Assembly: GCF_055900595.2 (NCBI RefSeq)
Contig: NZ_CM148325.1
Length of the DNA stretch: 64,000 nucleotides
Reading direction: 5' to 3' (one strand)
Below the pieces are notes generated by a model, which saw only the letters and a list, made by a program, of their open reading frames with translations, was not told the DNA's origin and did not search any database. A program made the position numbers and the translations under genes. Positions 738-50,021 of this stretch are shown here, piece by piece (the first letter of the stretch is position 1; each line of letters opens with the position of its first letter).

Positions 738-1436
738 ATGGAAAATCAACCTAAGTTGAATAGCAGTAAAGAAGTAATCGCGTTTCTGGCCGAACGTTTT
801 CCCCACTGTTTCAGTGCGGAAGGTGAAGCGCGTCCGCTGAAAATCGGTATTTTTCAGGATTTGGTCGATCGTGTTGCCGGGGAAATGAACCTGAGCAAAA
901 CGCAATTGCGATCCGCTTTACGTCTCTATACCTCGAGCTGGCGTTACCTTTACGGTGTTAAACCCGGCGCAACGCGTGTCGATCTTGACGGCAACCCATG
1001 CGGTGAGCTGGACGAGCAACATGTAGAGCATGCTCGCAAGCAGCTTGAAGAAGCGAAAGCACGTGTTCAGGCACAGCGTGCTGAGCAGCAAGCGAAAAAA
1101 CGCGAAGCTGCCGCAGCTGCTGGTGAGAAAGAAGACGCACCGCGCCGTGAACGCAAGCCACGTCCGACCACGCCACGCCGCAAAGAAGGCGCTGAGCGTA
1201 AACCACGTGCGCAAAAGCCGGTAGAGAAAGCGCCAAAAACAGCAAAAGCACCTCGCGAAGAACAGCACACCCCAGTTTCTGACATTTCAGCTCTGACTGT
1301 CGGACAAGCCCTGAAGGTGAAAGCGGGTCAAAACGCGATGGATGCCACCGTATTAGAAATCACCAAAGACGGCGTCCGCGTCCAACTGAATTCGGGTATG
1401 TCTTTGATTGTGCGCGCAGAACACCTGGTGTTCTGA
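738..1436 (+). CDS. proQ: RNA chaperone ProQ
   Basis: 232-aa [28 protein letters not shown]..., Lys/Arg/Ala-rich linker and C-terminal domain as in E. coli ProQ. Confidence 0.95.
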
Positions 1437-6172: not shown

Positions 6173-6964
6173 ATGGCTAACGCAGATCTGGATAAACAGC
6201 CTGATTCTGTATCTTCCGTGCTGAAAGTTTTTGGCATTTTGCAGGCGCTGGGTGAAGAGCGCGAAATAGGGATAACCGAGCTGTCGCAGCGCGTCATGAT
6301 GTCAAAAAGCACCGTTTATCGCTTTTTACAGACCATGAAAACCCTGGGTTATGTGGCGCAGGAAGGGGAGTCGGAGAAATATTCGCTGACCCTGAAATTG
6401 TTTGAACTGGGCGCTCGCGCGTTACAAAACGTCGATTTAATTCGTAGCGCAGATATCCAGATGCGTGAGATCTCCCGCCTGACGAAAGAAACTATCCACC
6501 TCGGCGCACTGGACGAAGACAGTATTGTTTACATCCACAAAATTGACTCTATGTACAATTTGCGCATGTATTCACGGATTGGTCGTCGTAATCCGCTGTA
6601 CAGCACCGCGATTGGTAAGGTACTGCTGGCATGGCGCGATCGCGATGAAGTGAAGCAAATTCTTGAGGGCGTGGAGTATAAACGCAGTACCGAACGGACC
6701 ATCACCAGTACAGAAGCGTTATTACCCGTTCTGGACCTGGTGCGCGAGCAGGGGTATGGCGAAGATAACGAAGAGCAGGAAGAAGGACTGCGTTGCATTG
6801 CGGTTCCGGTATTTGATCGCTTTGGCGTGGTCATTGCCGGTCTGAGCATCTCCTTCCCGACGTTGCGTTTCTCTGAAGAGCGTTTACAGGAATATGTCGC
6901 AATGTTGCATACCGCGGCGCGCAAAATTTCTGCCCAAATGGGTTATCACGACTATCCGTTCTGA
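6173..6964 (+). CDS. kdgR: IclR-family transcriptional repressor KdgR
   Basis: 263-aa ORF MANADLDKQPDSVSSVLKVFGILQALGEE..., IclR-type HTH and effector domain. Confidence 0.95.
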   Translation: MANADLDKQPDSVSSVLKVFGILQALGEEREIGITELSQRVMMSKSTVYRFLQTMKTLGYVAQEGESEKYSLTLKLFELGARALQNVDLIRSADIQMREISRLTKETIHLGALDEDSIVYIHKIDSMYNLRMYSRIGRRNPLYSTAIGKVLLAWRDRDEVKQILEGVEYKRSTERTITSTEALLPVLDLVREQGYGEDNEEQEEGLRCIAVPVFDRFGVVIAGLSISFPTLRFSEERLQEYVAMLHTAARKISAQMGYHDYPF

Positions 6965-6973
6965 TGAGAGTAA

Positions 6974-7010
6974 GAACCTGTCTGAATATCAAACAGACAG
7001 GTTCTTTATT
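6974..7010 (+). terminator. intrinsic terminator downstream of kdgR
   Basis: 12-bp perfect stem agaacctgtctg / cagacaggttct followed by T-rich tract. Confidence 0.7.
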
Positions 7011-7107
7011 TAGCATGAGAAAAATAAAGTTGAAGGTGGCGTTATATTAAACGCACTTGCGATAAGAATATTTTACTTATGAGTGAGAATCTGGTTATTT
7101 ATTACCC

Positions 7108-7347
7108 TTAACCATTATCGACCACAATATTGCTTTTACGTAACAACGGGCAATCTGTTATCCCCAGAAAACCACTTTTAGTGTGCAGGTATTGTACCGT
7201 GCTGGTGCCTCTGGCGGTCAGATAGGTACATTGCAAACCTAATCCCGCGGCATTCTCTTTGCTTCCAATCAAAACGCCATATCCGCTGAGTAATAATCCT
7301 ATCCATACCAGTGCTATCAGCATAACTGTGCGAATGATGAATCGCAT
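7108..7347 (-). CDS. yobH: small uncharacterized protein YobH
   Basis: 79-aa ORF MRFIIRTVMLIALVWIGLLLSGYG..., N-terminal hydrophobic segment. Confidence 0.8.
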   Translation of the reverse strand: MRFIIRTVMLIALVWIGLLLSGYGVLIGSKENAAGLGLQCTYLTARGTSTVQYLHTKSGFLGITDCPLLRKSNIVVDNG

Positions 7348-7449
7348 TACAACCTCTTCTCTTTTTATGTTCGCTTAATCGTAGCGGCAATATGCGCTGA
7401 AGCAAGCGACTCATTCTGAAAAAGCACGAATATCGACATAGTTAGGCGC

Positions 7450-7467
7450 TGTTTAACTAACACATGC
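7450..7467 (+). promoter_or_regulatory. candidate PhoP box in mgrB promoter
   Basis: TGTTTAA...CACATG direct-repeat-like motif about 40-55 bp upstream of the mgrB GTG, followed by TTTAAT -10-like hexamer; mgrB is a known PhoPQ target. Confidence 0.4.
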
Positions 7468-7505
7468 TAGTTTAATGACATAAGGTAGGTGAAACGGAGA
7501 TTGGA

Positions 7506-7649
7506 GTGAAAAAGTTTCGATGGGTCGTTCTGGTTGTCGTGGTGTTGGCTTGCTTGCTGCTTTGGGCGCAGGTATTCAACATGATGTGCGATCAGGATGT
7601 ACAATTTTTCAGCGGAATTTGTGCCATTAACCAGTTTATCCCGTGGTGA
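7506..7649 (+). CDS. mgrB: PhoQ feedback inhibitor MgrB (47 aa)
   Basis: Translated by hand: GTG start with GGAG 6 nt upstream; [47 protein letters not shown]; absent from track because it is under 60 aa. Confidence 0.9.
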
Positions 7650-7723
7650 TATCATTTTTTCAGCACTAGATTTTCTTCCTCTCCAGCAGTGGTAGAATAG
7701 CGCCTCTACTCAGAGGTGGTGAA

Positions 7724-8011
7724 ATGAACGAAGTTGTAAATTCAGGCGTGATGAACATTGCGTCTTTGGTTGTATCGGTGGTGGTTCTTCTTCTCGGGCT
7801 CATCTTGTGGTTTTTTATCAATCGTGCCAGTTCACGAACTAACGAACAGATTGAACTGCTTGAGGCGTTGCTGGATCAGCAAAAACGTCAAAATGCACTG
7901 TTACGTCGTTTGTGCGAAGCAAACGAACCTGAGAAAGAAGATAAAAAGACCGTTGAGAGTCAAAAATCGGTTGAAGACGAAGATATTATTCGTCTGGTCG
8001 CCGAACGGTAA
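7724..8011 (+). CDS. yebO: small membrane protein YebO
   Basis: 95-aa ORF MNEVVNSGVMNIASLVVSVVVLLLGLILWFFINR... Confidence 0.85.
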   Translation: MNEVVNSGVMNIASLVVSVVVLLLGLILWFFINRASSRTNEQIELLEALLDQQKRQNALLRRLCEANEPEKEDKKTVESQKSVEDEDIIRLVAER

Positions 8012-8680
8012 TCCTTCCTCAATCTTGAGTAACCCCGTCGTTGAAGGGTTACTCAATTCATCCTGATTATACGCACTGTCATGGTGCAACTGCTTCAAAT
8101 TAAAACTCTGGTCTGACTTCAAATAATTATCATATTATTTATTTGCGTAACGGGATATCAGAAAAAGATATTTAGCCCATTAATTTATTAGGATGTTTAC
8201 ATCGGATTTGTGATTAAGCGTGGTATTATTTATTAGCGAAACGTTTCTCTCTTGATTTTTTTGCGCATTCATCAATTTTTCTTATTTTAAATTTACAATA
8301 CCTTTGGCGATTGACTTCTCTTTGGGGTGATTGATAGCCGTTAACTGACTGTTTTATGAGAAAAAGTGATATAACTTTTTATTCATTGCATAGCAGAAAA
8401 TGTGATATTGCACGCACTATGTAATAACTTCTCCCATTGGCCTGGAACAACTGAACTTATTGAACTATGTTAGAAAATACGTCAGTTTAAGTATCTGCCT
8501 GAACTGGCAAGGTTAAGCACAATGATATATCGGCGCGTATTCCGTTGCATAAGTGTGCAAAAAAAGTGGAAGACGTATCGAGATTTGTGCGTCTGATCGA
8601 GACATGTTTAAAAATGGCTTGCCATAATTAACGTTGTATGTGATAACAGATTTCGGGTTAAACGAGGTACAGTTCTGTTT

Positions 8681-14350: not shown

Positions 14351-14686
14351 GATATCGAAAAAATTATTTTATGTGATGAAGATCCGTAATTTAACTTTCG
14401 ATTAGCAGAAATTTCGAAAGGTAAAATATCCTTGTCACATTCGTTTGCAAAGGAAGGTAAATCTTTGCCAAATCAGATGTGTCTCTGATATGTTTAACTC
14501 CCGTTTAACAACCATGGAGTATAGGGCAGTAGCCCGCAGTATGGATCGTCACCGACGTCATTTCAGCATCAGGCCTTTTAACGCCTGCTTTTCTGGCACT
14601 TTATGCCGCACCTTTCGTTTGCCTTTTGTCGTTACGCCTGCATTATTTCTGGCGCCGAATAGCTATTCCTTAAGCAGGAGCTTGTC

Positions 14687-49586: not shown

Positions 49587-50021
49587 GGTATGCCGTCCTT
49601 TCGTTTTTTAGCACAGGTTAAGAGCCGTTCATATGAATAGTAGAGGCTCCCGGAAGAGGTAAACTGAACGACGTCTCTTGCTAAAACACAGCAACTCTCA
49701 TGCCATTTTATCGACGATGAGAACAACGTGCCCGGTGATACACCTTCAAAATTAAGCGTAGATGGCAAATGGAAAACTTGCCTGCACGGCTTTCTTAATT
49801 TCAATGGCATATCAACAACTCATCCATAAAATTTGCATAATTAATGTAAAGACCAGGGTCGCCAGTAACGCGTAATTCATTTGGCTGTAAGCGTGGTGTC
49901 ATCTGCGTCAGGAAAATTAAACAGTTACTTTAAAAAATGAAAACGTAAAAAGGTTGGGTTTCGATGTATTGACGGGTAAACTTTGTCGCCCGCTAAACAT
50001 TTGTTTAAGGAATGATTAATT

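Follow-up and report, generated by a model that had tools for sequence, protein, structure and literature searches.

The gene mgrB, its PhoP-dependent promoter and the feedback inhibition of PhoQ by its product are textbook knowledge, and in Klebsiella the loss of mgrB is among the leading causes of colistin resistance. That the mgrB promoter depends on PhoP and that MgrB inhibits PhoQ have both been described (PMC2789325, PMC8404706): an Escherichia coli PmgrB reporter is regulated by PhoP (PMC2789325), and the K-12 protein, identical to the one analyzed here, has been shown to bind and inhibit the PhoQ sensor kinase (PMC2789325, PMC8404706). Binding of phosphorylated PhoP (PhoP-P) to the E. 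coli mgrB promoter has also been used as the positive control in electrophoretic mobility shift assays (EMSA; PMC8355897). In Salmonella, where mgrB is named yobG, the promoter was assigned to architecture II by Zwir et al. 2012 (PMC3335776). It carries a proximal PhoP box in direct orientation (ACAGTTACTCCTGGTTTAA) 12 nt upstream of the -10 element TAATTT, a distal PhoP box in reverse orientation (GTTTTTAGGAATGATTCAC) and a single S1-mapped, PhoP-dependent transcription start on the fifth nucleotide after the -10, yielding a 26-nt leader (PMC3335776). Among PhoP promoters, architectures I and II are those described with 12 nt between box and -10 element (PMC3335776).

The DNA analyzed in this work, referred to throughout as the window, is a 64,000-nt stretch of contig NZ_CM148325.1 from RefSeq assembly GCF_055900595.2. 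A preceding reading of the letters alone (the sequence-only reading) had proposed that interval 7450..7649 encodes MgrB on its plus strand beneath a spurious antisense open-reading frame (ORF), with a PhoP box upstream. Our analysis indicates, with high confidence, that the interval holds E. coli mgrB together with its PhoP-activated promoter. The mgrB coding sequence (CDS) spans 7506..7649 (+) and comprises a GTG start, 47 codons and a TGA stop, and the ORF listing reports the 47-residue product translated from the plus strand with GTG as first codon. The alignment to K-12 mgrB that had been put forward as a check finds the 144-nt CDS to be 100% identical to b1826 of E. coli K-12 MG1655. The product matches the MgrB family in Pfam (PF13998; 66.3 bits, cut-off 27) and the NCBIfam equivalog NF007635 over residues 1-47 of its 47-position profile (89.9 bits, cut-off 40). 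Of 5426 complete E. coli genomes, 5424 contain a match to the 1.1 kb around mgrB, and yobH, mgrB and yebO are the RefSeq features under that match among the matches listed. K-12 identity, both family profiles and RefSeq annotation thus agree with the earlier proposal of a 47-aa MgrB starting at GTG 7506, and 7506..7649 on the plus strand is mgrB, an ordinary and well-studied E. coli gene.

Conservation was assessed on an ortholog set of 81 sequences, consisting of the window and 80 mgrB loci from other Enterobacteriaceae. The search probe was a 3-sequence alignment including Klebsiella and Salmonella MgrB sequences, and the Salmonella sequence was found verbatim in public genomes. The Shine-Dalgarno sequence GGAG that had been reported ahead of the gene can be read directly at 7496..7499 (+), 6 nt before GTG 7506, and its four positions are conserved at 1.00/0.94/0.94/1.00 across the 81 orthologous upstream regions; another GGAG (7503..7506) overlaps the start codon itself. 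This codon is GTG in 80 of the 81 orthologous sequences and TTG in the remaining one, and the in-frame TGA at 7476..7478 precludes a canonical start for mgrB further upstream.

The translated product displays the traits of MgrB, namely a length of about 47 residues, N-terminal lysines, a tail with C28 and C39, and residues W20, D31, F34, G37 and W47. Mutagenesis has established that K2, K3, W20, F24, C28, D31, F34, G37, C39 and W47 matter for PhoQ inhibition (PMC8404706), and the window protein has every one of them. In the 81 orthologs, the K3, W20, C28, D31, F34, C39 and W47 columns are at least 98% conserved (C28 and C39 are kept in 81/81), G37 is conserved at 90% and K2 at about 70%, and F24 is variable, with I as the consensus residue. 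Judged by the identical K-12 protein, which was studied in PMC2789325, the window MgrB would consist of one hydrophobic helix followed by a periplasmic tail. The cysteine at position 16 (7551..7553) follows V-L-A in a lipobox-like arrangement and is kept in 80 of 81 orthologs, and some RefSeq records, as well as the NCBIfam model, use the product name 'PhoP/PhoQ regulatory lipoprotein MgrB'; a C16A substitution was reported to be without effect on MgrB function (PMC8404706).

The genes flanking mgrB are kdgR (6173..6964, +), found as in K-12, yobH (7108..7347, -), which matches the Pfam YobH family and is divergent from mgrB, and yebO (7724..8011, +), which matches the Pfam YebO family. The order kdgR-yobH-mgrB-yebO is the same in the window, in the best-matching strain, in K-12 and in a retrieved Salmonella-type locus. 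A search for an intrinsic terminator in the stretch from mgrB to yebO (7650..7723, +) gave none. A hairpin at approximately 7700..7720, adjoining the yebO ribosome-binding site, is unremarkable (z = -0.64) and has no T-run. The sequence TGgTAGAAT at 7690..7698 (+), which this small hairpin follows, resembles an extended -10 element for yebO. An Rfam scan of 6900..8300 returned only sub-threshold chance matches.

To locate PhoP boxes, the window was scored with a matrix derived from 36 DNase-footprinted Salmonella boxes (PMC3335776 Table 1), from which the two yobG sites were left out because their use would have been circular. The matrix is validated inside the window by the yoaE PhoP box ATGTTTAACTCCCGTTTAA (14490..14508, +), since this footprinted site ranks second of 127,964 positions (13.73 bits, 1 mismatch; fraction 0.00002) and fits the canonical PhoP box better than any other sequence in the window. 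The box is oriented towards yoaL-yoaE and precedes yoaL by 35-51 nt, YoaE being a CNNM/CorC-type cation transport protein. A sequence identical to ATGTTTAACTCCCGTTTAA bound PhoP of Shigella flexneri in EMSA and DNase footprinting (PMC5775216), and the yoaE PhoP site is hence already known. Another sequence, TGTTTAAGGAATGATTA (50002..50018, +), matches the PhoP-box pattern with 1 mismatch (13.37 bits). By coordinate mapping to NZ_CP098223.1, it precedes the start codon of mipA, a gene of the same strand, by only 5-21 nt, which is too near that codon for an activator site of the -35 type; it could be a chance match, or a leader or repressor site. In the window as a whole, the pattern KGTTTA-N5-KGTTTA is matched with at most 2 mismatches at 33 positions, compared with 16.6 in dinucleotide shuffles, and 0 of 100 shuffles reach 33; this twofold excess may stem from higher-order composition and not from PhoP sites.

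Upstream of mgrB, the matrix, the pattern, conservation and alignment to Salmonella all point to a proximal PhoP box ATAGTTAGGCGCTGTTTAA at 7438..7456 (+), which occupies the -35 region. Its half-sites, TAGTTA (7439..7444) and TGTTTA (7450..7455), are directly repeated with a period of 11 bp, TGTTTA being the promoter-proximal half. The arrangement TAGTTA-GGCGC-TGTTTA (7439..7455) is the sole match near mgrB to KGTTTA-N5-KGTTTA with up to 2 mismatches, and both mismatches to the consensus fall in the TAGTTA upstream half. The box scores 9.81 bits and ranks 43 of 127,964 window positions (fraction 0.00034, or the top 0.034%). For comparison, the footprinted proximal box of Salmonella yobG, ACAGTTACTCCTGGTTTAA, scores 7.47 bits, a value reached by a fraction 0.00079 of window positions. 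The matrix is weak, with 43 positions in 64 kb reaching this score, and it is position and conservation, not score, that carry the argument. The half-site cores GTTA (7441-44) and GTTTA (7451-55) are 94-100% conserved across the 81 upstream regions, and in 66 of the 81 the top-scoring upstream matrix site begins at -65 to -73 relative to the start codon, a range that includes the window site at -68.

Alignment to the Salmonella promoter leads to the same placement. A retrieved locus with a Salmonella-type MgrB holds both yobG boxes verbatim, the distal one (GTTTTTAGGAATGATTCAC) at 1102..1120 (-) of that locus (L083), and can be aligned to the window over the promoter with no gaps, so that ACAGTTACTCCTGGTTTAA maps to 7438..7456, the -10 TAATTT to TAGTTT at 7468..7473 and GTTTTTAGGAATGATTCAC to 7406..7424 (-). 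By this gap-free correspondence with the DNase-footprinted yobG box, the Salmonella PhoP footprint would be expected to transfer base for base to the E. coli box. The top matrix match in the yobH-mgrB spacer is another sequence, CTTTTTATGTTCGCTTAAT at 7361..7379 (+), which scores 10.98 bits, the mgrB box being second-best. This match falls within the leader of yobH, at 14-32 nt from the start codon of that gene, and does not keep its position in other genera; we take it to be, probably, a chance match.

Downstream of the box, conservation and the Salmonella alignment define a predicted extended -10 element, TG-c-TAGTTT, at 7465..7473 (+), with its hexamer at 7468..7473. Across the 81 upstream regions, conservation reaches 0.99 at T7465, 1.00 at G7466, 0.91 at T7468, 0.99 at A7469 and 1.00 at T7473; positions 7470-72 and 7474 keep the window base (G, T, T; A) in just 12-22% of sequences. 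The conserved islands of the region are GTTA...GTTTA, TGnTAnnnT, A7480, GGAG and GTG. The end of TGTTTA at 7455 and the start of TAGTTT at 7468 are separated by 12 nt. A consensus scan for a sigma-70 -35/-10 pair at the mgrB promoter found none, as expected of a promoter in which an activator site takes the place of the -35. The Salmonella yobG start maps by alignment to window position 7478/7479, and A7480, which is 90% conserved, lies at the canonical 7-nt distance from the -10 element. From Salmonella and from this conservation we infer that E. coli mgrB transcription starts near 7478-7480 (+).

The features just described bear directly on two rival accounts of the interval, concerning its coding strand and the composition of its PhoP box. 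The sequence-only reading was accurate in stating that the ORF track gives only a 62-aa minus-strand ORF at 7467..7655. This frame is the sole ORF of at least 60 aa overlapping 7450..7649, which is why a track filtered at that length shows nothing else. That it has an ATG start and is also the longest ORF of the interval might suggest a real overlapping gene, a proposition to which we give next to no credence. The mgrB frame is free of internal stops and of the same length in 81 of 81 orthologous sequences, whereas the antisense frame is stop-free in 15, interrupted in 66 and retains its start codon in just 17. In the 81 sequences, the first, second and third codon positions of mgrB have nucleotide diversities of 0.196, 0.088 and 0.423, a pattern that is the signature of selection on the plus frame. 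The first codon position of the antisense frame falls on the fast-evolving third position of mgrB, and the substitutions track the mgrB frame, not the antisense ORF. The antisense product has no Pfam match above cut-off and no NCBIfam match, and the ORF is annotated neither in K-12 nor in the best-matching strain nor in the genomes among the matches listed. As a gene, it would start beyond the mgrB stop codon and finish within the mgrB promoter. Its earlier description as spurious is upheld, and the case illustrates how a 60-aa ORF filter misses a 47-codon gene with a GTG start and displays a longer spurious antisense ORF in its place.

The PhoP box proposed by the sequence-only reading fared less evenly. 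Its location over the -35 region is borne out by ATAGTTAGGCGCTGTTTAA, and TGTTTA 7450..7455 is indeed one of the half-sites. TGTTTA-type repeats do exist upstream of the gene, but at 51-56 nt (TGTTTA, 7450..7455) and 32-37 nt (AGTTTA, 7469..7474) from the GTG and not at the 40-55 bp that had been given. The alternative that these two hexamers together form the PhoP box draws on their location upstream of a known PhoP-activated gene and on their sequence, both fitting (T/G/A)GTTTA and sharing the hexamer GTTTAA (at 7451 and 7470). Their starts are, however, 19 bp apart rather than the 11 of a PhoP box. The matrix scan that had been suggested as a check supports 7438..7456, but not the 19-mer frames that pair either hexamer with a partner 11 bp off inside the interval: CTGTTTAACTAACACATGC (7449..7467, frame A) scores -2.60 bits (fraction 0.027) and CTAACACATGCTAGTTTAA (7457..7475, frame B) scores -3.19 bits (fraction 0.031). 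The repeat itself does not exceed what chance would give. The window contains 41 copies of GTTTAA where 38.9 are expected, and at least one same-strand pair no more than 30 nt apart is present in 34% of dinucleotide shuffles. Nor is AGTTTA 7469..7474 conserved as GTTTA. Only TA...T preceded by TG is kept in this region, which aligns with the Salmonella -10 TAATTT (PMC3335776), and because positions 7470-72 and 7474 are unconserved and other genera read AACCTG, ATCCTG or AATTTG, we assign the hexamer to the -10 element and not to a half-site. A box composed of the 7450 and 7469 hexamers is accordingly highly improbable, and as a claim about sequence it may be considered refuted by the analysis. 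The partner of TGTTTA is instead TAGTTA 7439..7444, which lies just outside the 7450..7649 interval considered originally. Spotting GTTTA hexamers by eye thus catches a -10 element and overlooks the real but degenerate half-site; the gene call obtained in this way was trustworthy, whereas the motif call needed spacing, a matrix and phylogenetic footprinting to be corrected.

A third question concerns the region upstream of the proximal box. Alignment places the equivalent of the distal, reverse PhoP box of Salmonella at 7406..7424 (-), in a block that is conserved but makes a degenerate PhoP site: the sequence found there, CTTTTTCAGAATGAGTCGC, scores -7.7 bits, as opposed to 5.9 for Salmonella, and the E. 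coli promoter may therefore have one box (architecture I) and not two. Adjoining it we find a putative yobH promoter at 7378..7405 (-), with a -35 TTGCTT (7405..7400), a 16-nt spacer and a -10 TACGAT (7383..7378). It is quite possible, if short of probable, that in E. coli the conserved block 7400..7424 is chiefly part of this divergent yobH promoter and not a second mgrB PhoP site; the -35 TTG (7405..7403), with the bases immediately upstream, would then come from the block. In agreement with this proposal, not only does the window counterpart of the Salmonella box fail to score, but the conserved CAA at 7403-05 reads TTG on the minus strand and stands 16 nt upstream of a conserved TAnnnT (7383..7378), both being at least 85-95% conserved across genera. 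Against it, DNase footprints show that the homologous sequence of Salmonella is covered by PhoP-P (PMC3335776), and the strongest conservation in the block, at ATTC (7413-16) and AAA (7419-21), is at least 99% in the 81 upstream regions and falls outside the putative yobH -35. The distal box was also considered as an 'architecture III' site for yobH, 23 nt upstream of the putative yobH -10. This option was set aside because yobH has been described as apparently not regulated by PhoP/PhoQ in Salmonella (PMC6726612) and the E. coli sequence does not score. The block 7400..7424 is conserved in nearly all Enterobacteriaceae sampled. The two roles might be combined, the 158-bp yobH-mgrB spacer being a compact bidirectional region in which 7400..7424 acts both as yobH -35/upstream element and as a vestigial or low-affinity PhoP site, but we regard this as unlikely. 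Were it true, E. coli would have gone over to a promoter with one box from an architecture with two, as in Salmonella, and the gain of MgrB negative feedback could differ between the species.

For mgrB itself, taken with the proximal box as its PhoP site, these elements outline how the locus would operate. Upon sensing low Mg2+, antimicrobial peptides or acid pH, PhoQ would phosphorylate PhoP, and a PhoP-P dimer would bind head-to-tail at TAGTTA-N5-TGTTTA (7439..7455), in the place of a -35 hexamer, and recruit RNA polymerase to the extended -10 TGcTAGTTT (7465..7473). Transcription would start at about 7478-7480, producing a leader of about 27 nt that contains GGAG 7496..7499, and translation would proceed from GTG 7506. 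The 47-residue MgrB is expected to enter the inner membrane by its N-terminal helix, where it would bind and repress PhoQ, closing a negative feedback loop. The gene, its PhoP-dependent promoter and this regulatory logic are already known, and the locus presents no new biology.

The locus can be placed next to three described systems. With the canonical PhoP boxes of mgtA, phoP and yoaE, which follow (T/G)GTTTA-N5-(T/G)GTTTA, the mgrB box shares an 11-bp direct repeat over the -35 region; unlike them, it has TAGTTA as its upstream half, a weak first repeat of the S2 submotif type of Zwir et al. A strict pattern search for the Shigella PhoP box makes no mention of mgrB (PMC5775216), and this weak half-site may be the reason; the yoaE box of the window is, by contrast, almost perfect. 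Relative to K-12 mgrB (b1826, formerly yobG), the CDS, start codon, Shine-Dalgarno sequence, promoter elements and neighbourhood are all the same, and the yobH-mgrB spacer differs by two SNPs only. The first (7417; T in the window, C in K-12) lies within the degenerate distal block at a position where either allele is often met in other genera (C 67%, T 33%), and the second (7462; A in the window, G in K-12) lies in the non-conserved spacer between PhoP box and -10; neither touches a conserved position, and no effect is expected from them. Compared with Salmonella yobG, the proximal box is in the same place (ACAGTTACTCCTGGTTTAA there, ATAGTTAGGCGCTGTTTAA in the window) and 12 nt from the -10 in both, the -10 elements are of the same type (TAATTT and TAGTTT, each preceded by TG-n), and the leaders are similarly short, that of E. 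coli being 1 nt longer. The two promoters part at the distal reverse box, which scores 5.9 bits in Salmonella and -7.7 bits in the window.
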